A stretch of 37,317 bases of DNA from a virus. Below, piece after piece: positions 1 through 37,317 of the stretch. Below the pieces are notes generated by a model. The model saw nothing but the letters and a program-made list of their open reading frames with translations, was not told the origin of the DNA and searched no databases. The stretch spans positions 1 through 37,317 of IMG/VR virus record IMGVR_UViG_3300042902_000028. One strand, given 5' to 3'. The position numbers were made by a program, and so were the translations under genes. Each line of letters begins with the position of its first letter. Positions within the stretch are counted from its first letter, which is position 1.

Positions 1-127
1 GCGCATTGAGGGAGATAGGAGATGATAAAGCTAAAGGCACTAATTGATTTAGATCCTATAGTGTATCGAATAGGGTTTGCTTGTCAGGCAAAAGATGAGG
101 ATGGAAATGTAAAAGCAGAACCAATCT
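1..127. repeat. Terminal overlap, copy 1 (identical to 37191-37317); marks closure of a circular or permuted genome
   Basis: Direct comparison: all 127 nt at 1-127 equal 37191-37317. The repeat cuts through the 5' part of the exonuclease ORF. Confidence 0.95.
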
Positions 128-15730: not shown

Positions 15731-16348
15731 TTAATCCTTTGATGCTAAAATCATATCGAGATACTTAGGAGTAAATGCTCCAGCACTTCCTGTATTACCA
15801 TGTGTATGAGAACCACCTCCACCAGTACTACCAGTATCGGCATTTAATATCTCTTCATAAGACTGGTCGCCAGAACTCATATTCTGGTCATTACCATCAC
15901 CTTTTCTATAGGTATGTGTATGAGCAGGCATTTCAGCAATAGTTAGAACGTGTCCAGCAGTTGTATGTACGTGAGCGGCTAGACTTATTGGACTAACCGT
16001 ACCACCAGAACCACCACCAGCCGTTGAAACTACCCTAAGCATAGCATCATTATGCGTTGTTACTTGAGTCCAACCAGTTGGTGCGGCTGATTGAAAGAAC
16101 GACATTACAGTGCCAGATACAAAAGAGATATTAGCTGGAGTAAACCCACTAGACTCTAACTGACCACTAGAGGTAAACTTAGGAATCTCACCAGTCTCAC
16201 CAGCTACCTTATTAATCTTACTAGCTACTGCAATAGCGATAGGGTCAAACTCAGCATCAAACAAAGAACCGTTGATAATCTTATTAGGGTCGCCAGATGA
16301 TAATGAATCTTTAGCCGTGAAGTTTGTTACTTTACTGTAATCTGTCAA
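15731..16348 (-). CDS. Tail fibre protein with phage tail-collar domain
   Basis: The N-terminus (NFTAKDSLSSGDPNKIINGSLFDAEFDPIA) is typical of fibre N-termini. LTIAEMPAHTHTY and GGGGSHTHGN match the tail-collar (MPxHxH) domain. Confidence 0.7.
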   Translation of the reverse strand: MTDYSKVTNFTAKDSLSSGDPNKIINGSLFDAEFDPIAIAVASKINKVAGETGEIPKFTSSGQLESSGFTPANISFVSGTVMSFFQSAAPTGWTQVTTHNDAMLRVVSTAGGGSGGTVSPISLAAHVHTTAGHVLTIAEMPAHTHTYRKGDGNDQNMSSGDQSYEEILNADTGSTGGGGSHTHGNTGSAGAFTPKYLDMILASKD

Positions 16349-16369
16349 GGGTAAACCCTCCTTATGTTA

Positions 16370-17881
16370 TTATATTTGTAACTTACCAATCTTGGCTTGT
16401 ATATCTATACGCTGAAGACCAAACTCACCACCAGCAGTTGTTGTAGTAAGACCAAATTGAACCACCCTACCACTACCTCTCAGGGGTGTTGTAACTTCTC
16501 GGTTTGAACTACCAGTACCAAACTCTGCTACTGTATACTCACCTACACCAAATTCATCCCATTTACCTGATTCAGTTGATAATGTCTTATAGTATAACTT
16601 AGTCTCATAGTCAAATTTCCATCTTAATGTAACTAAATAACCAAGACCACCATAGATATGTACTGAGTTTCTCTTTAGCATCTTTTCCATGTTAGATACT
16701 TCTTGACCGAAGTCATTCCATAAACCATCATAATCTAGTGTATATCCTGCCCCTCCAGTACCACCTGAAGATACGTTATCGAAGTATCCTTGATAGTTCT
16801 GTAGGAAGCCTGTATCTAGTCCAAAATAGAGTGTATCATCTGTTGTAGAGCATAAGCTAGTAAATGTTCTTTGCCACTCTGTTACCCTAAATGAACCATC
16901 TGGTAGTGCGGCTCGCACATTGAATTGAAATACTTTATTACTACTTGGAAAAGATAAGAGGTAAAAACCCTCTTTCCTGTTGTATGTAGACTTAACATTA
17001 ACCCCATCTGGGTAGTTTACATAACCTAATAGGTAGTCTCTAATATTCTTTGATACATCCCTGTCAGGTAGTGACTTCTCTTGTACTACTCTACTTAGAG
17101 CTGTTAACCCTCTTGAAGATAGGAATAATAAATCATTACCTACTTGCTGTATTGAGTCTCTAGCTACACAACCTATACCTGTAATGTTCTCTGTCATAGC
17201 AGCAGTTGATAACACTGAATCATATATGATAATGTTATTCTTACCAAATACTGCTAAACCACCATTAAACTCCGATATAGCTACTACCTCATCCATACCA
17301 TCTTTCCAGTACGAAGCTAAATCAAAGAAACCAGCACTACCTCCAGTAAAGTTATTAATAAGTAAGTCAGAGTAGTATAAAACACTTGCTGTAGCAGTCC
17401 AAATACGTCCACCAGCGGCACAAACCATTGCACCATTGTATTGTGTACCACCAGAGTCTGTAAACGTCCCACCAGTCGTTGTAAGGCTTATAGGAGCATG
17501 CCCTCTTTGAAAGCCTACACACCAATCATTAAAGTTAGTGAACTGCCAGTTATCCCCAGTTGGAGTTGTTATAGTTCCTGATATATCCGTTACTGTAGAA
17601 CCTACTGATTTGAATATCTTATTATCAGCGGCAAAAATAAGTACCCTATTTGCATTAGCATCTGAATACTCATGAATGCTCTTAATAGTAGGTGTATTAG
17701 TAATAACCGTAGCATTAACATTTCGAGTACCCTTACGGGCGGCTAATCTGCCATTCTGGTCAAAGACAAAGTTTGTTGCAGTACCTGCCCACCTAGGGTC
17801 TAGCGAGTCATCTGACTGTTGTTTGTTTAACCCTAAAGACCCTGCATAATTTAACCCAAAGTGTACGAGTGGTTTAGCGAT
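16370..17881 (-). CDS. Tail tubular / nozzle-like protein; start codon unresolved
   Basis: The frame is open from 17893 to 16370. The first ATG is at 17428, and there is no ATG/GTG/TTG in the 155 codons upstream of it. AGGAGG (17895-17890) lies 8 nt before an in-frame ATC (17881). The N-terminal text GLNKQQSDDSLDPRWAGTATNFVFDQNGRLAARKG looks like real coding sequence. Confidence 0.5.
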   Translation of the reverse strand: MAKPLVHFGLNYAGSLGLNKQQSDDSLDPRWAGTATNFVFDQNGRLAARKGTRNVNATVITNTPTIKSIHEYSDANANRVLIFAADNKIFKSVGSTVTDISGTITTPTGDNWQFTNFNDWCVGFQRGHAPISLTTTGGTFTDSGGTQYNGAMVCAAGGRIWTATASVLYYSDLLINNFTGGSAGFFDLASYWKDGMDEVVAISEFNGGLAVFGKNNIIIYDSVLSTAAMTENITGIGCVARDSIQQVGNDLLFLSSRGLTALSRVVQEKSLPDRDVSKNIRDYLLGYVNYPDGVNVKSTYNRKEGFYLLSFPSSNKVFQFNVRAALPDGSFRVTEWQRTFTSLCSTTDDTLYFGLDTGFLQNYQGYFDNVSSGGTGGAGYTLDYDGLWNDFGQEVSNMEKMLKRNSVHIYGGLGYLVTLRWKFDYETKLYYKTLSTESGKWDEFGVGEYTVAEFGTGSSNREVTTPLRGSGRVVQFGLTTTTAGGEFGLQRIDIQAKIGKLQI

Positions 17882-18302
17882 GGGAATACCCTCCTAAATA
17901 CTTAATAGCATTTTCAAGATTTTGTGTATTATCCATGAAGTTACCTAAACCAAGGTTACACCGATAACATAAAAGACCCCTAACCACACTCGTTGTGTGG
18001 CAATGGTCTACATGCAATGCTCTCCCCTCCAAATCAACTTCCGATAGACCACAGATAAGGCACTTGTAGTCTTGGTCTTTAAGCATGTTAGAGTAGTCCT
18101 CTAAAGTAATACCATACTTCCTCTTTAGGTCATAGCCTTTTTGTTGTATAAATATATAACCCTTAGTCTTTTTGTATCGCACTTTAGCGGCTTCAGCGGC
18201 ACAAGACTTACAGTTTGGTCTACGACCTTTAGGAGATTGTGCATTTCTATGATATTCCTCTATGCCCTTTTCTTTCCCACACTTAGAGCAAGTCTTAGCC
18301 AT
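17874..18302 (-). CDS. Endonuclease VII-type HNH endonuclease
   Basis: LHVDHCHTTSVVRGLLCYRCNLGLGNF matches the T4 Endo VII family core (DHxH..RGLLC..CN..LG). N-terminal CSKCG..CKSC zinc motif. ATG at 18302 is 9 nt after GGGAGG. Confidence 0.8.
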   Translation of the reverse strand: MAKTCSKCGKEKGIEEYHRNAQSPKGRRPNCKSCAAEAAKVRYKKTKGYIFIQQKGYDLKRKYGITLEDYSNMLKDQDYKCLICGLSEVDLEGRALHVDHCHTTSVVRGLLCYRCNLGLGNFMDNTQNLENAIKYLGGYSHR

Positions 18303-18303
18303 A

Positions 18304-18945
18304 TCACACAACCTCCCAAACTAATTCACTAGGCACGTAAGATGAGTCATAGGCTATTGCATCACTTAAAGCCTTCTCAGCGTTAACCAGAGCATCCCTA
18401 TAGGCTATACCAGAATCTTCACCACGCTCTGAGATAGCTTTAGCGTAAGCGGCTAGTATAACTGGATATTCTGGAACTGTTAGTTCGTCATCAAGTGCCA
18501 CTAAGTCATCTTGAGGAATCTTCATATTAAAGTTAATAGCATAACCAGCATCAGGTACTGGAAATAAATCTACATTATAATCTCCACCTGCTGTACCATT
18601 TACATCATAGTAACTTGGTTGTCCATTTGTAGTGGTAGACGTTGTTAGTTGCATCGTCATCCACTTACCATTGGCTCTTTGTACTTCATAGTTATCTGTA
18701 TCATTAACTACGTATAAAATCTGTGAGCGTTTACCACTTCCTGTTAATGTATAACGGAGGGTACTTGCTACTGTTGTTACTTGAATCGTACTTCTTAGTT
18801 GAACCCAATTCCAAGCATCTTCTACTTCTCTTTTGGCTTCATTCACAAACTCACCAATTAGTTTAGTGTAGCCTGCTGTTAAATCTTGTTCTTCATCTTC
18901 ACGAAGTCTTATCATTACTTTATTAATAATTTGTAGGTAATTCAT
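18304..18945 (-). CDS. Head-tail adaptor / tail tubular protein A-like (putative)
   Basis: 213 aa, first gene after the capsid terminator and upstream of the nozzle-like gene. Assigned by position and size only. Confidence 0.4.
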   Translation of the reverse strand: MNYLQIINKVMIRLREDEEQDLTAGYTKLIGEFVNEAKREVEDAWNWVQLRSTIQVTTVASTLRYTLTGSGKRSQILYVVNDTDNYEVQRANGKWMTMQLTTSTTTNGQPSYYDVNGTAGGDYNVDLFPVPDAGYAINFNMKIPQDDLVALDDELTVPEYPVILAAYAKAISERGEDSGIAYRDALVNAEKALSDAIAYDSSYVPSELVWEVV

Positions 18946-19019: not shown

Positions 19020-20054
19020 CTATGCAGCTACTATGAAGGCAACCCCAGCAGTATCACGTAACTCACCCACCCCGTAGATTGTGTCAGCAGTGAACAAGTC
19101 ACCTAACCATTCTTGTTTGTATTGACTTTGAGTACGAACACCCATTTGCTCAATATGAACTAGTGCTGATTTGTGCATTGCAAGGCAAGCACGATATTTA
19201 GTATCTGTAGGAGAGGTTGTATTCCAATCTACAGTTACACCAAGTAAATCTACATAAGACGCACCAGTAGGAGCGGCAGAACTAGCTGTTACAGATTTAG
19301 TACCAGTAACACTGTTAACATGAACCCAAGGGCAATGAGTTGAAACATATACAGGAATACCGTATACTTCACCAATTTGACCATTACGGATTGTGTTGCC
19401 AGTACCAACTTCACCAGTAAATGCTTGTTCAGTGAAACGAGCAATACCCATAAGAGTGTTACGCTCTACAGGTGGAACAACAATAACACGCTCAGACTGA
19501 GGCACGTCATTATCATCCATTGTTTGAATCATATTACGAATACCAGCATCAGTTAATGTTGAACCATTACCTGTGTTAGTGCTTGCAGTAGCATCAAATA
19601 CTGTTGTACCGTCACCACCAATTACAGCAGTTGAGTAAGCAGTTGAACCGTTTAAGCCAGCACCTAATAGGTGGAGGTCTAAATCTACTTGCTCTGCTAG
19701 TGCATTACCAGCATCATCAGTGTAAAAGGCGCGCATTGAACTTAAGCCTTGCTTCTCAGCAATGTCTTCAATGATATAGCTATATTCATAATGCTTGTTA
19801 ATGTTTAATGCAATTTCTGATTCAGTGTTAGCAATCAATGTTACTTGAGTTGAAGCCGCTTTAGCTGAAGCTGAACCACGAGTAGGAGAAGGGATATGGA
19901 TTGTATCACCTTTCTTACCATTGTGGTTTAGTTTAGTTACAAGGTTAGATAAAACCAAGTTTTTCTTGTATGCCGCAACAACGTCATCACTCCAGATTTC
20001 TGGGATGAAGACTGCTTGAGTTGCGCCCGTTTTGTGTGAAGTTCCTAATGCCAT
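19020..20054 (-). CDS. Major capsid protein
   Basis: 344 aa, directly after the scaffold gene. The N-terminal pattern IPEIWSDDVVAAYKKNLVLSNLV..GDTIHIP is typical of podovirus HK97-fold capsid proteins. A terminator follows. Confidence 0.75.
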   Translation of the reverse strand: MALGTSHKTGATQAVFIPEIWSDDVVAAYKKNLVLSNLVTKLNHNGKKGDTIHIPSPTRGSASAKAASTQVTLIANTESEIALNINKHYEYSYIIEDIAEKQGLSSMRAFYTDDAGNALAEQVDLDLHLLGAGLNGSTAYSTAVIGGDGTTVFDATASTNTGNGSTLTDAGIRNMIQTMDDNDVPQSERVIVVPPVERNTLMGIARFTEQAFTGEVGTGNTIRNGQIGEVYGIPVYVSTHCPWVHVNSVTGTKSVTASSAAPTGASYVDLLGVTVDWNTTSPTDTKYRACLAMHKSALVHIEQMGVRTQSQYKQEWLGDLFTADTIYGVGELRDTAGVAFIVAA

Positions 20055-21209: not shown

Positions 21210-21728
21210 TTATGCACCTCCAGAAACTACTAGCCAATCTTCGGCTAGAGCATCACTACCTGAAGGAGCCCAAGTCGCAATATCGTTTTGTGCTGTTTTA
21301 AGTACCAAATACTCACGATACGGTACCATTTCACCAAACGTTTCTCTAGCAACATCTGTTTGTGCAGGATAACTATTAGCAGGAACTAGGTAAATGAACA
21401 TGCCACTACCATTCCAACCAGAACGAGCTACTTTTTTACCTTGCCTCATCAACCAAACGGCATGACCAAAAGACAACTTACCACTTGTTTGATACGCTAC
21501 CTCAAACTGCTCTTTAGGGCTCCAACTAACATAACCGCTGTACTCTCCGGTGTTAGGCTTTTCACCATCTATATACTCAACTAAGTATCCTTCATCAGAA
21601 CCATCCTCATCTTTAGGTAGAGTCCAACCTCTATAGTTGTTGTAGTCTTGACGATTCATTGATTTAGCGTTAATACTTTTTGTACCTATAAATTTACTCA
21701 TCATTTGTTGTATCTCCTGATTTTGCAC
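21210..21728 (-). CDS. DUF2829-domain protein (Tad2-family-like) with an extra N-terminal domain
   Basis: C-terminal half: FGHAVWLMRQGKKVARSGWNGSGMFIYL..YLVLKTAQNDIATWAPSGSDALAEDWLVV fits the DUF2829 pattern (GKKVAR.GWNG..M.I.L...KT....W.PS..D.LAEDW). Confidence 0.65.
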   Translation of the reverse strand: MQNQEIQQMMSKFIGTKSINAKSMNRQDYNNYRGWTLPKDEDGSDEGYLVEYIDGEKPNTGEYSGYVSWSPKEQFEVAYQTSGKLSFGHAVWLMRQGKKVARSGWNGSGMFIYLVPANSYPAQTDVARETFGEMVPYREYLVLKTAQNDIATWAPSGSDALAEDWLVVSGGA

Positions 21729-32041: not shown

Positions 32042-33694
32042 ATGGGATTAAAAGACAAAGGTACGCTACTATACAAGACAAACTGTACTGAGTGTGGCTC
32101 TAGTGATGCGAATCAGGTCTATGGTCACGAAGATGGTACAACAGATACTTATTGCTTTGCTTGCCAAGCGTATGGTTTTAGTGATACAATAGTAAAACAT
32201 AAACAGGAGGATGATAAAGTGGAAATGAAAGATATAGATAGCCTACCCAGCCTTGGTATCCGTGGTGTAAAAGATGCGGTAGCAGGTTTGTTCGGTGTTA
32301 AGGTGGGCTTTAGTCCTAATGATGGAAAGACAATCATTAAGCAATTTTACCCAAGCACTAAAGAAGGACAGGTTGTAGGTTATAACGAACGTAACGTGCT
32401 GAATAAGGGGTTTTTAGGGGTTGGGGATAGGAAAGGTAGCTTAGAGCTATTTGGGCAGGCTATAGCGAAGCGTAATGGGTATAAAAAGCTATTCATTACT
32501 GAGGGTGAGCTTGATGCAATGAGTTTATATCAAGTAATGGTGGAGAATACACCTGATAAGTATAAAGAGTATAAACCTAGTGTAGTATCTTTTACCAGAG
32601 GGGCAACAGCAGGTCTGAAAGACCTTATTAATAATAGGGCATTCATAGACAAGTATGAAGAAGTTACACTAGTATTAGATAATGATGAAGCAGGAAAGCA
32701 GGCGCAAAGTGAGATACTCAAAACCTTTCACCACTTCAAGGTGGCAGAGTTACCAATGAAAGATGCTAATGCTATGCTGGAGGCTGGTAAGGGTAAGGAG
32801 TTGTATAATGCTTGCATGTGGAACGCAAAGCATGTACGGCAGGGTGAGGTAGTACAGGTAGATGACATACTAATTGAGAAAGCACTAGAAAGACCGCAGT
32901 TTGGTATTAGTAGTCCTTGGGCTAGCTTAGATAAACTAACGTATGGCATCAGACCACATACAATAACAGTACTGGGTGCAGCACCAAAACAGGGAAAAAG
33001 TGAGTTTAAGAACCAGCTTATACACCATTTAGCGATAATACACGAAAGACCAGTTGGAATATTTGACTTAGAAGTACATCCCGTTAAAACATTGAAACAG
33101 GTCGCATCTAAAGAAGCTAAGTTAAACTTCCTTAGACCTGACGTGGAATATAAAGATGAGTTACTAAAAGAGACTTTAGGAAAGTTTAAAGGCAAGTTAC
33201 ATTTATATGACAGGTCTGGGAGTAGAGACTGGGCAGATATTAGGGTTGCTATAGAAGAAATGTACTTATTAGATGGTGTTAGAGAGTTCTTCCTTGACCC
33301 GCTAACAGCTTTAATTAGCCGATATAGTAGTAGTGAAGCCAATGACAAACTAAATGAGATAATGACTGATGTAGCTGACCTAGTAAATAAGTATCCTATC
33401 TCAATCTTCTGCTTCTCACATATTAATGGTAAACCAAAAGGAGCTAAACAACACGAGCAAGGCGCTAAGGTACTGTCTAGTGAGTTTACGGGCAGTCGTA
33501 GCTTAGAGAAGTGGTCAAATCTAGGGTTGGCAATAGAGCGGGATAGAAGTGATGACTGCCCTATTGAAGATAGAAATAAATCTAAGGTTGTGATACTCTA
33601 CGATAGAGATTGGGGCAACTATGGGAGTGTTGATATGTTTTATGACGTTAATACTACAGAATATTTAGAGCCAAGCAATAGGTGGGGCAGATGA
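32042..33694 (+). CDS. Bifunctional primase-helicase (T7 gp4-like)
   Basis: N-terminal Cys4 zinc finger (CTECG..CFACQ). TOPRIM residues ITEGELDAMS and VLDNDEAGKQA. Helicase Walker A GAAPKQGKSEF. Confidence 0.85.
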   Translation: MGLKDKGTLLYKTNCTECGSSDANQVYGHEDGTTDTYCFACQAYGFSDTIVKHKQEDDKVEMKDIDSLPSLGIRGVKDAVAGLFGVKVGFSPNDGKTIIKQFYPSTKEGQVVGYNERNVLNKGFLGVGDRKGSLELFGQAIAKRNGYKKLFITEGELDAMSLYQVMVENTPDKYKEYKPSVVSFTRGATAGLKDLINNRAFIDKYEEVTLVLDNDEAGKQAQSEILKTFHHFKVAELPMKDANAMLEAGKGKELYNACMWNAKHVRQGEVVQVDDILIEKALERPQFGISSPWASLDKLTYGIRPHTITVLGAAPKQGKSEFKNQLIHHLAIIHERPVGIFDLEVHPVKTLKQVASKEAKLNFLRPDVEYKDELLKETLGKFKGKLHLYDRSGSRDWADIRVAIEEMYLLDGVREFFLDPLTALISRYSSSEANDKLNEIMTDVADLVNKYPISIFCFSHINGKPKGAKQHEQGAKVLSSEFTGSRSLEKWSNLGLAIERDRSDDCPIEDRNKSKVVILYDRDWGNYGSVDMFYDVNTTEYLEPSNRWGR

Positions 33695-34164
33695 TTACAC
33701 AAGAAAGATTGAAAGAGCAACTTCATTATAACAAGGAAAGCGGAGTGTTTAGGTGGGATTGCTGTAAGTCTGGGGTAATTAAAGGCAAGGTTGCGGGAAG
33801 GCTTAATAATAAAGGTTATTCACAGATTATGATTGATGGTGTTAGATACATGTCTCATAGATTAGCTTGGCTATATGAGTTTGGAGAACACCCAAAAGAA
33901 TTTTTAGACCACCTTAATCACATTAGGACTGACAATAGGATTGTAAACCTAAGGGCAGTATCTCACAGGGAGAATATGAAGAACCAAGTAGTTAGAGCAA
34001 CTAATAAAACTGGAGTAACAGGTGTTAGAGTGAATAAAAAAGGTAGGTTTTTAGTTGATATACAAAACAACTATTATGGGACTTTTGATAACTTAGAGTT
34101 TGCAACTCTTGTGGCATCAGAGGTTTATGATAAGCTAAATTACCATTCTAATCACGGGAGTTAA
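33691..34164 (+). CDS. HNH (HNH_3) homing endonuclease with AP2-type DNA-binding domain
   Basis: LDHLNHIRTDNRIVNLRAVSHRENMKN (HNH_3 core) followed by GVTGVRVNKKGRFLV (AP2-like). ATGA overlap with the primase-helicase stop. Confidence 0.75.
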   Translation: MITQERLKEQLHYNKESGVFRWDCCKSGVIKGKVAGRLNNKGYSQIMIDGVRYMSHRLAWLYEFGEHPKEFLDHLNHIRTDNRIVNLRAVSHRENMKNQVVRATNKTGVTGVRVNKKGRFLVDIQNNYYGTFDNLEFATLVASEVYDKLNYHSNHGS

Positions 34165-34166
34165 TT

Positions 34167-36014
34167 ATGGAAGAGTTAATAGCGGACATCGAAACGGACG
34201 GAATAAATCCAACTAAAATACATTGTATTGTAGATAGTAATGGTTTTGAGTCTACAAGTTACACTGAAATGAGGGGTTGGGTTAGTGATAAAGATGAGAG
34301 CACGCTATTAATTGGACATAATTTTGTTGCTTATGATTCAGTTGTAATTAACAAGTTACTAGGGACTCCAGTAAAAGCAGAGTTAGTTGATACTTTATAC
34401 CTCAGCTGGTATCTCTTCCCACGGAGGGTTAAGCATAACTTAGAGTCTTGGGGAGAAGATTTTGGAGTACCAAAACCTAAAATAGAAGACTGGAACAACC
34501 TAACTCCTACTCAGTATTTACATCGCTGTAGGGAGGATGTTCGTATAAACAAGATGCTTTGGGAGTTACAAAAGAAATACTTAATAGATATTTATGGTAG
34601 TTTAGAAGAAGCACTTCCTCTTATCCGTTACCTAACATTTAAGGCAGATTGCGCTAGGCTACAAGAGGAAACAAAGTGGAAATTAGATGTACCTAAAGCG
34701 TCACAATTACACACTACTTTTTGTGACAAACAAGACCTTGCAAAAGATACGTTACAGTCAGTAATGCCTAAGGTTAAGAAGTACACAAAGAAGACTAGAC
34801 CTGCTAAGCCTTATAAGATTGATGGTACACTATCAGCTACAGGATTGAAGTGGCAAGCATTGACAATGGAAGGTAATTTATCATTTGATTATGAGGGAAC
34901 ACTAGAAGTATTTCATAGCTTACAAGAACCTAATGCAGGAAGTAGCAAACAGATTAAGGATTGGCTATACGATTTAGGGTGGCAACCAGCTACCTATAAA
35001 TTTATAAAAGAGGAGTTTAGTGAAAGAAAGATTCCACAGATTAAGACAGCAGATGGTGATTTGTGTCCCTCTATAGAGCGTATGGTAGCCAAGAATCCAG
35101 AGTTAGCTAGTCTAGCAGAGCTTGGGGTATTAGGACACCGTATAGGCATCGTTAAGGGCTTTCTAGATGCAGAAGTAGACGGTTATGTAGTAGCTGGTAT
35201 ACAAGGCTTAACTAATACCCTTAGATTTAAACATAGAACATGTGTTAATATACCTTCTAGCCGTAAGCCGTATGGTAGTGAGATTAGGGAGTTACTTACA
35301 GCAGAAGAAGGTTATGAGCTATGTGGTAGTGATATGTGTAGCTTAGAAGATAGAACAAAGCAACATTATATGTTTCCATATGACCCTGAGTATGTAGAGG
35401 AAATGAATGTAGAAGGTTGGGATGCCCATTTAGATATTGCAGTACAAGCTAGTATGATGACAGAGTTAAATGCTCTTAGTTACAAGCAAGGTAATAAGAC
35501 AGATGAGCTTAGTTTGATTAGATACAATGCAAAAACTGCAAATTATTCATGCACCTATGGCGCTTTTCCTAAGACAATAGCTAGACAGGCAGGTATGAGT
35601 TTAGAAGAAGCCACCAAGCTAAGAGAAACATATTGGGAGCGTAATTGGTCTATACTAGAGATAGCTAAGAATGTAGTCACTAAGGTTGTACAAGGGGTTA
35701 TGTGGTTATACAATCCAGTATCAGAGTTATGGTACTACCTTAAGACAGAGAAAGATAAGTTTAGTACCCTTAATCAAGGTACAGCATCATTTTTATTTGA
35801 CATGTGGGTAAAGGAGATTAGAACAAGACAACCTAAGATTAAGTTGGTAGCAAACTTCCATGATGAGGTTGTGTTAGCAGTTAAGGTGGGTTATAGAGAC
35901 AAAGTAACAAAGTTATTAAAAGACTCTGTTCAACAAGTAAATGCTACATATAAACTGAATAGAGATTTAGACGTAGATGTAGATTATGGGGAGAACTACA
36001 GTGAGGTGCATTAA
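34167..36014 (+). CDS. Family A DNA polymerase with 3'-5' exonuclease domain (T7 gp5-like)
   Basis: Exo I ADIETDG and Exo II GHNFVAYDSVV. Pol motif A GSDMCSLEDR, motif B RYNAKTANYSCTYG, motif C ANFHDEVV. Confidence 0.85.
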   Translation: MEELIADIETDGINPTKIHCIVDSNGFESTSYTEMRGWVSDKDESTLLIGHNFVAYDSVVINKLLGTPVKAELVDTLYLSWYLFPRRVKHNLESWGEDFGVPKPKIEDWNNLTPTQYLHRCREDVRINKMLWELQKKYLIDIYGSLEEALPLIRYLTFKADCARLQEETKWKLDVPKASQLHTTFCDKQDLAKDTLQSVMPKVKKYTKKTRPAKPYKIDGTLSATGLKWQALTMEGNLSFDYEGTLEVFHSLQEPNAGSSKQIKDWLYDLGWQPATYKFIKEEFSERKIPQIKTADGDLCPSIERMVAKNPELASLAELGVLGHRIGIVKGFLDAEVDGYVVAGIQGLTNTLRFKHRTCVNIPSSRKPYGSEIRELLTAEEGYELCGSDMCSLEDRTKQHYMFPYDPEYVEEMNVEGWDAHLDIAVQASMMTELNALSYKQGNKTDELSLIRYNAKTANYSCTYGAFPKTIARQAGMSLEEATKLRETYWERNWSILEIAKNVVTKVVQGVMWLYNPVSELWYYLKTEKDKFSTLNQGTASFLFDMWVKEIRTRQPKIKLVANFHDEVVLAVKVGYRDKVTKLLKDSVQQVNATYKLNRDLDVDVDYGENYSEVH

Positions 36015-37190: not shown

Positions 37191-37317
37191 GCGCATTGAG
37201 GGAGATAGGAGATGATAAAGCTAAAGGCACTAATTGATTTAGATCCTATAGTGTATCGAATAGGGTTTGCTTGTCAGGCAAAAGATGAGGATGGAAATGT
37301 AAAAGCAGAACCAATCT
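37191..37317. repeat. Terminal overlap, copy 2 (identical to 1-127)
   Basis: Exact 127-nt identity. 37212-37317 simply duplicates the first 106 nt of the exonuclease gene. Confidence 0.95.

Follow-up and report, generated by a model that had tools for sequence, protein, structure and literature searches.

Gene order at the adaptor-nozzle junction

We analysed the whole of IMG/VR record IMGVR_UViG_3300042902_000028, a stretch of marine phage DNA of 37,317 nucleotides (nt) referred to here as the window, with a focus on a tail nozzle gene that has no canonical start codon at its 5' end and on the HNH endonuclease gene that abuts it. On the minus strand, a capsid gene (19020-20054) is followed by a gene for an SU10-type adaptor of 213 amino acids (aa; 18304-18945; Pfam PF24175 SU10_adaptor, E 3e-11), by the HNH/Endonuclease VII gene (18302-17874) and by a long open reading frame (ORF) ending at 16370. 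The frame of this last ORF is open from 17893, is closed upstream by a TAG at 17896-17894 with more stops further upstream in the same frame, and runs to the TAA at 16372-16370. An earlier note on this DNA, made from the sequence alone, had given these limits and had reported no ATG, GTG or TTG before the ATG at 17428, 155 codons past the opening of the frame, as well as a 20-nt overlap between the open frame and the HNH ORF; all of these coordinates hold. The ATG at 17428 (17428-17426, minus strand), which lacks an upstream Shine-Dalgarno (SD) sequence, is codon 152 counted from an in-frame ATC at 17881-17879, and gene callers wrongly start the gene there, so that both IMG and Logan list a 352-aa product.

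The initiation signals that the earlier note had pointed out were found in the places it gave. A strong SD, AGGAGG(G), occupies 17895-17890(89) on the minus strand within the C-terminal tail of the HNH gene (..YLGGYSHR*), with the in-frame ATC 8 nt downstream (7 nt when the last G is counted in) and an in-frame ATT (17887-17885) 2 nt downstream. Among eleven start sites examined in the module, this AGGAGGG and a near-identical site before the next gene are the strongest. The next gene encodes 205 aa from a TTG at 16348, and its initiation region, AGGAGGGTTTACCC-TTG, is almost the same as the one that the HNH gene carries for the nozzle, AGGAGGGTATTCCC-ATC (16349-16370 compared with 17882-17895, minus strand); this likeness may mean that the two share an optimum, or that the HNH 3' end arose by recombination.

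In the neighbouring structural genes, 3.1% of the sense codons are canonical start codons, and at this frequency a run of 154 codons without one has a probability of P ~0.008. We considered whether the scarcity of ATG, GTG and TTG in codons 2-151 might be a sign of selection linked to the ATC, and discarded this idea because the scarcity is a family-wide trait that ATG-starting relatives have too; in the relative L001 (handles beginning with L denote loci) the first internal canonical start codon is likewise codon 152. Gap length as such is therefore uninformative, and the informative point is the absence of a start codon at the position of Met1.

The nozzle protein is conserved over its full length

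A search of ~5.8 billion protein clusters returned 318 homologues of the nozzle protein, the top ones of which are 500-506 aa long and span 99% of the open frame of 507 codons. More than 100 of the homologues (~503 aa) start with MAKPL[IV]HFGLNYAGSLGLNK, and their Met1 aligns exactly with the ATC at 17881: homologue N-termini of the form MAKPL[IV]HFGLNYAGSLGLNKQ... stand against ...E-G-I-P-I-A-K-P-L-V-H-F-G-L-N-Y... in the window. Counted from this ATC, the full-length nozzle, or tail hub, gene extends over 16370-17881 (minus strand), with 503 codons plus the stop. The ratio of nonsynonymous to synonymous substitution rates (dN/dS) for codons 2-155, measured between the window and three close relatives, is 0.08-0.10, which shows purifying selection on them. 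The window's nozzle is the sole truncated call (352 aa) in its seven-member 90% protein cluster, in which five other members are full-length at 503 aa; the truncation by gene callers is due to the rare ATC start.

An AlphaFold2 model of the nozzle protein, built from 83 sequences, reached a predicted local distance difference test score (pLDDT) of 87.5 and a predicted template modelling score (pTM) of 0.87, and the N-terminal strands belong to this confident beta-propeller model. According to the model, a product initiated at Met-152 would miss the first 151 residues, about a third of the predicted fold. The earlier note had described the upstream 155 codons as reading like real protein and had quoted a peptide from them; the peptide is present in the translation, and the low dN/dS, the alignment with homologues and the modelled fold all bear this description out.

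Neither Pfam nor a profile search of the PDB gave a sequence-level match to the nozzle protein; fold comparison alone succeeded. With Foldseek, the top 30 PDB matches are chains of podophage tail nozzle or hub proteins (E 1e-21 to 1e-11), among the best of them the Pa223 tail (E 1e-21, TM-score 0.75), VP1, P22 gp10, T7 gp12, the PhiM1 nozzle and SU10. Together with the adjacent adaptor gene, these matches vindicate the label of a nozzle-like tail gene. The window protein thus resembles the podovirus nozzle and hub proteins (T7 gp12, P22 gp10, PhiM1, SU10, Pa223 and VP1) in its predicted fold and in its position after the adaptor, but differs from them in sequence, with only 8-14% identity.

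An HNH gene occupies the first codons of the nozzle gene

The gene between adaptor and nozzle runs from the ATG at 18302 to the TAA at 17876-17874 (17874-18302, minus strand) and encodes 142 aa plus the stop. Its classification as an Endonuclease VII-type HNH gene, already proposed in the earlier note, is upheld by matches to Pfam PF02945 Endonuclease_7 (E 1.9e-23) and to the PHROG endonuclease VII family (E 1e-41), and the protein carries an N-terminal CxxC...CxxC module. In the protein database it is a singleton, its next relative being 44% identical.

The HNH gene is absent from the examined relatives of 85-93% identity (L001-L004, L088 and L089), in which the adaptor gene lies directly upstream of the nozzle gene: the adaptor stop is followed at once by ATGGCTAAA in L001 and L088 (92-93% aa identity) and in L002-L004 and L089 (85%). 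The junction of these HNH-less relatives reads ...GGGAGGttgtgtgatATGGCTAAAcc, or more fully ...TGGGAGGTTGTGTGAtATGGCTAAACC..., and in a further rendering ...GTGTGATATGGCTAAACC...; side by side, the HNH-less allele has gtgtgatATGGCTAAAcc and the window gtgtgatATGGCTAAGact. This alignment, which the earlier note had proposed, identifies the ancestral start as an ATG at the Met1 position, and the window carries an insertion of 421 nt relative to the HNH-less alleles (17882-18302, minus strand). The insertion is bounded by two copies of an 8-nt repeat, the 5' copy ATGGCTAA at 18295-18302 and the 3' copy ATCGCTAA at 17874-17881 (both minus strand), which lie 421 nt apart and leave the boundaries ambiguous by up to 8 nt. 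On either side of it, the window is collinear with L001 and L088, and nucleotide identity is 85-95%. The HNH gene is thus present or absent at one precise site between conserved genes of collinear relatives, and a mobile HNH insertion that displaced the original start, one of the readings offered in the earlier note, accounts for this empty site. A co-conversion tract was not obvious in the nucleotide-identity profile around the insertion.

The two junctions reveal how the HNH gene is fitted into its host gene. On the left (...TGGGAGGTTGTGTGAtATGGCTAAGACTTGC...), the 5' copy of the repeat consists of the ancestral nozzle start codon and the 5 nt that follow it, and the HNH ORF now begins with it (ATGGCTAAg...). 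The ancestral nozzle SD, GGGAGG (18312-18317, minus strand), lies within the 3' end of the adaptor gene, 9 nt before the ATG at 18302, and now serves the HNH gene; the same sequence at the same spacing precedes the nozzle ATG in L001, L002 and L088. On the right (...TATTTAGGAGGGTATTCCCATCGCTAAACCACTC...), the 3' copy of the repeat holds the HNH stop codon, the TAA at 17876-17874 being formed by nozzle codons 2-3 in the +1 frame. Between these borders the HNH 3' tail contributes the new SD followed by the ATC (AGGAGGgtattcccATCGCTAAAcc). The HNH protein of the window ends in ..AIKYLGGYSHR*, and the natural C-terminus of related HNH proteins is ..AIKYLG(G).

An HNH gene could also be lodged within a self-splicing intron, or be removed by some other RNA-level excision, such that ATG(GCTAA) is joined to the nozzle ORF. 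Phage group I introns often house HNH genes, and the 8-nt repeat would permit an in-frame junction. However, a search of Rfam at E up to 10 found no intron family in 17300-18700, the ORF takes up all 421 nt and leaves no room for a ribozyme core, the repeat has no register with a U at the end of the 5' exon as well as a G at the end of the intron, and the RNA around the junction and initiation region folds no better than shuffled sequence (z = 0.35). Moreover, a new SD and a re-encoded nozzle N-terminus follow the insertion, and neither would be needed under splicing. We consider such excision extremely improbable. An intein is likewise not indicated, as the HNH ORF fills the insertion, has a stop codon and is out of frame with the nozzle gene.

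A second allele and related HNH genes at other junctions

To place the insertion among related loci, we compared the HNH protein of the window by tblastn with ~160 nozzle loci from metagenomes and IMG/VR and found related HNH genes in four of them. One, L172 (IMGVR_UViG_3300033153_000989), carries its HNH gene (PF02945, E 1e-24; 42% identical to the window's, with the VDHCH signature in common) at the same adaptor-nozzle junction, next to a nozzle gene that is ~50% identical to the window's. The HNH gene of L172 starts with GTG CCT AAG CAG CT, which is the ancestral 5' end of the nozzle gene at this locus (MPKQL; see L175 and L178 for comparison), and ends with ...TAT TTG GAG AAG GCC CAT CCC TAA. 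At the right junction (...GGAGAAGGCCC ATC CCT AAA) the TAA again derives from nozzle codons 2-3, and the nozzle gene then reads ATC CCT AAA CAA CTA CTC, (I/M)PKQLL..; its 503 codons are intact, and it has no canonical start.

Two features of L172 bear on the origin of the ATC. The start codon is GTG in the 5' copy and ATC in the 3' copy, and the string CCCATC is common to the window and L172 despite a next codon that is host-specific (GCT in the window, CCT in L172). From this, the ATC appears to be part of the 3' end of the element and not a decayed host start. The C of the ATC is also the first base of the last HNH codon, which encodes Arg in the window and Pro in L172; as this codon is not conserved, the endonuclease protein sets no constraint on that C.

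The remaining three related HNH genes lie at other sites: two, in L174 and L179, precede the adaptor gene, and one, in L175, follows the nozzle gene. In L174 (1243-1689), the HNH gene before the adaptor opens with (TTG) ACG TAC CTA, encoding MTYL, which is the adaptor's own N-terminus (GTG ACA TAT CTA), an instance of the same start-capture architecture at another site. An SD-like purine run is present in the 3' tail of the related HNH genes in five of five cases, and 7-10 nt separate it from the start of the host gene that follows. Given its domain, the site polymorphism, the lack of an intron or intein and the distribution of related copies over several sites, the window gene classes as a putative free-standing homing endonuclease gene, and we infer that it would be an active homing enzyme.

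Further searches for alleles at the nozzle site added nothing to these two. A protein search with the L172 HNH showed that it, too, is a singleton and returned no further nozzle-site alleles; the exact 24-nt junction of the window had no match in IMG/VR; and none of the 80 closest HNH loci in IMG/VR adjoins a recognisable nozzle gene, with only a weak partial match in L006. A degenerate junction pattern, CCCATCSCTAAA-N39-GGNYTNAAY, was also run against IMG/VR and hit L248 and L249, which we rejected as chance matches in unrelated contexts; only L172 was real.

Start codons across the nozzle loci

We then took a census of the codon at or near the Met1 position in ~105 distinct junctions from the ~160 loci. 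ATG was found in 87, GTG in 10 and TTG in 4, and four junctions have no canonical start; ~20 further loci, left unplaced by the anchor script, all have a clear Met start. The four non-canonical junctions comprise ATC in the window, in L172 and in L087, and ATT in L215. L087 has the ATC at the Met1 position (264-266) in the absence of any HNH gene, with the adaptor TAA 1 nt upstream, and its nozzle gene is called at 467 aa (P0007). In L215 (= L135), from a soil phage, the ATT overlaps the adaptor TAG (TATTAGC; 2476-2481) and has AAGGA 7-8 nt upstream; the only canonical alternative, a TTG, is 41 codons further upstream, within the adaptor gene. Each of the four near-cognate codons is no more than a few nt away from the stop of the upstream gene, an arrangement that fits termination-reinitiation coupling. 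The nozzle start codon varies between ATG, GTG, TTG and ATC even inside clades; the HNH-less L086, for instance, has a TTG start at 138-140 and a gene call of 490 aa (cluster P0005, 19 member sequences).

Probable initiation of the nozzle protein at AUC

The earlier note had proposed initiation at a non-canonical ATC or ATT codon, and only the ATC half of this proposal stands, on account of its alignment with Met1, its SD spacing and its recurrence in L172 and L087. An ATT start at 17887-17885 would add two N-terminal residues (Ile/Met-Pro). This codon lies in frame inside the open window, and ATT is a proven bacterial start codon, in infC and pcnB (bioRxiv 10.1101/063800). It does not, however, align with the Met1 of the homologues, and L172, which has the ATC, lacks an ATT at the corresponding position. 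With just 2 nt between the SD and the ATT, a spacing too short for initiation, we regard this start as very improbable.

The arrangement that we consider likely, and that is well supported by the sequence comparisons, combines an HNH insertion with initiation of the nozzle gene at AUC. In this model, a free-standing, putative HNH homing endonuclease gene has inserted into the first 8 nt of the nozzle gene. The HNH ORF, having neither a start nor a stop of its own, is translated from the nozzle's ancestral SD GGGAGG and ATG, and terminates at the TAA supplied by nozzle codons 2-3 (GCT AAA, +1 frame). The 3' tail of the cassette brings a substitute initiation region, consisting of AGGAGGG, an 8-nt spacer and the ATC, behind which the nozzle N-terminus is encoded anew (AKPLVHF...). 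Full-length nozzle protein (503 aa) would then most likely be initiated with formylmethionine at the near-cognate AUC, either through de novo binding of 30S subunits at the strong SD or through re-initiation by ribosomes that have terminated the HNH ORF 2 nt downstream (AUCGCUAA). Two of the readings in the earlier note, non-canonical initiation and displacement of the start by a mobile HNH gene, are accordingly both correct as halves of one explanation.

The comparisons establish the insertion with its borders, the captured ancestral start, the match of the ATC to Met1, the recurrence of the ATC, and what the nozzle protein is and how well it is conserved; from these data we infer both the use of AUC and its efficiency. 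Nozzle proteins of the T7 gp12 and P22 gp10 class form hexamers, and because only about six nozzle copies per virion are expected, a start working at a few percent of AUG should be tolerable. In E. coli, AUC initiates at ~1-2% (range 0.02-3%) of AUG, with an N-terminal Met confirmed by mass spectrometry (bioRxiv 10.1101/063800); the phage host may tolerate AUC differently.

A programmed +1 frameshift near the HNH stop, with AGGAGG acting as the stimulator as in prfB, would instead produce an HNH-nozzle fusion. The nozzle frame is indeed +1 relative to the HNH frame with an SD-like element upstream, and in L172 the sequence CCC UAA A could let tRNA-Pro slip onto CCU. In the window, however, the P-site codon CGC cannot re-pair on GCU, and no +1 slippery site is common to both alleles. 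The SD lies ~10 nt away from the site, as against 3 nt in prfB. A 140-aa extension is furthermore implausible on a nozzle that is a hexamer and has its N-terminus built into the fold, and the route is closed to the HNH-less ATC and ATT alleles. We judge such a fusion even more improbable than an ATT start. The earlier note had ranked splicing and recoding below its other readings, and the absent Rfam intron match, the ORF that fills the insertion, the re-encoded N-terminus and the lack of a shared slippery site justify that ranking.

Assembly and integrity of the allele

An exact direct repeat of 127 nt joins the ends of the window (1-127 = 37191-37317), which is a complete genome of ~37.19 kb, circularly closed or terminally redundant. 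A Logan contig from an independent assembly, SRR35182500_122180 (37,220 nt), is identical to the window over 8.4 kb, ATC included, and its length is compatible with the same circle, with an overlap of 30 nt; the same read set is probably behind both assemblies. GenBank phages contain no close DNA match to the window, and a protein-level search returned just ~25% identical structural proteins from pelagiphages, roseophages and Rhizobium phages, so that no cultured relative can be used for comparison.

These data bear on a further explanation, in which the allele is defective or missequenced: the ATC would be deleterious or an error, or the HNH insertion would silence or truncate the nozzle gene (Met-152 product), with survival through co-infecting phages. 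Such a view draws on the weakness of AUC as a start in E. coli, on the HNH-bearing allele being the only truncated call among the seven members of its 90% cluster and on the probable origin of both assemblies from the same reads. On the other hand, the same ATC junction occurs with an intact ORF in L172, which was sampled independently and is deeply diverged, and an ATC stands in L087 too. The SD spacing is ideal, there is no frameshift or stop in the 503 codons, and assembly closed the genome into a circle. Initiation at Met-152 would use an ATG without an SD and would leave out the 151 N-terminal residues, whose strands belong to the beta-propeller model. We therefore hold a defective or erroneous allele to be improbable.

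Some points weigh against an HNH insertion with AUC initiation. E. coli initiates poorly at AUC, and nozzle expression could be too low. HNH-bearing alleles at the nozzle site number two in the databases searched, both with singleton HNH proteins. Finally, the two assemblies of the window likely stem from one read set, and there may be an ATG/ATC polymorphism in the population.

Discussion

The closest parallels to this arrangement are the seg and mob genes of T4-like phages, free-standing homing endonuclease genes of the 'intronless homing' type (for example mobE between nrdA and nrdB), which likewise place an endonuclease ORF between conserved phage genes or at their edge and share with the window HNH its presence or absence among close relatives and its nuclease superfamily (HNH). 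The overlapping stop/start arrangements of T4 free-standing endonuclease genes suggest translational coupling (PMC2988022), and the window has an arrangement of this kind as well. Unlike the seg and mob genes, the window HNH ORF opens with 2-5 codons from the beginning of the host gene, to which it is joined in frame, uses the host SD and host start, takes host codons 2-3, read in another frame, as its stop, and gives the host gene a substitute SD with a near-cognate AUC; cleavage activity and homing are in this case predictions from sequence. The founding member of PF02945, T4 endonuclease VII (gp49), has the same catalytic domain and is a core Holliday-junction resolvase. In contrast to gp49, the window HNH carries the CxxC...CxxC module and is accessory, being absent from relatives of 85-93% identity, with related copies at different junctions; this distribution points to homing-endonuclease-like behaviour.

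For the start codon, the E. coli genes infC and pcnB offer a comparison. Their AUU, like the codon in the window, is an AUY codon behind an SD that employs initiator tRNA with a low output suited to a scarce protein. The AUU of infC is regulatory, mediating autoregulation through IF3, whereas the codon in the window is AUC and arrived with or because of a mobile element. For AUC, Hecht et al. list no confirmed natural E. coli gene (bioRxiv 10.1101/063800). The combination of a fusion to host codons, a borrowed start and stop and a substitute AUC initiation region is a variant of known phenomena.

We may ask why the element should carry an ATC. One idea is that it is a selected, element-borne feature, in which a portable SD plus CCCATC replaces the host ATG or GTG either to avoid rebuilding the recognition site or to throttle expression; we offer this tentatively and think it rather unlikely. 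In the self-immunity version, a canonical ATG followed by [G/C]CTAAA may rebuild the endonuclease's own recognition site; in the throttling version, a near-cognate start could possibly limit a protein needed in about six copies per virion. If the ATC were selected in this way, the HNH-less ATC of L087 and the variability of start codons within clades could be footprints of an arms race, the start codon having been degraded to escape cleavage, a proposal that we regard as doubtful. The alleles of the nozzle site allow a change of start codon to be tested as immunity against homing endonucleases, and a role of the ATC in selected immunity or throttling, if true, would raise the significance of this locus beyond moderate interest to specialists.

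Irrespective of such a role, the locus illustrates that an essential gene can take up a selfish endonuclease gene in its 5' edge with little apparent cost and receive an initiation region in return. The occurrence of AUC in one endonuclease-free allele as well as in two deeply diverged ones that bear the endonuclease makes this a phylogenetically replicated case for AUC initiation and coupling. There is also a consequence for annotation. Both public calls of the window genome give the truncated 352-aa nozzle, and relatives with ATC or TTG starts are miscalled as well (P0007 with 467 aa and P0005 with 490 aa, the latter comprising 19 member sequences); near-cognate starts of phage structural genes thus escape annotation systematically.

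Other features of the window

A second ORF with a start-less leader, of 83 codons, was noted at 32728-33597 (minus strand); it is antisense to the primase-helicase gene and has a low-complexity, Ser/Leu-rich translation, and we dismissed it as spurious. The window encodes a second free-standing endonuclease-like gene, for an HNH_3 protein of 160 aa (PF13392, E 1.8e-14; 33682-34164, plus strand), which is located between the genes for the primase-helicase (32042-33694) and the DNA polymerase (34167-36014) and whose GTG start overlaps the helicase end by 13 nt. Between the portal and scaffold genes, a protein of 164 aa (21210-21704, minus strand) contains a Tad2-like Thoeris anti-defence domain (PF11195, E 1.3e-22). 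The same interval in the 85%-identical L002 holds only an 82-aa ORF, and the Tad2-like gene thus looks like another accessory insertion.

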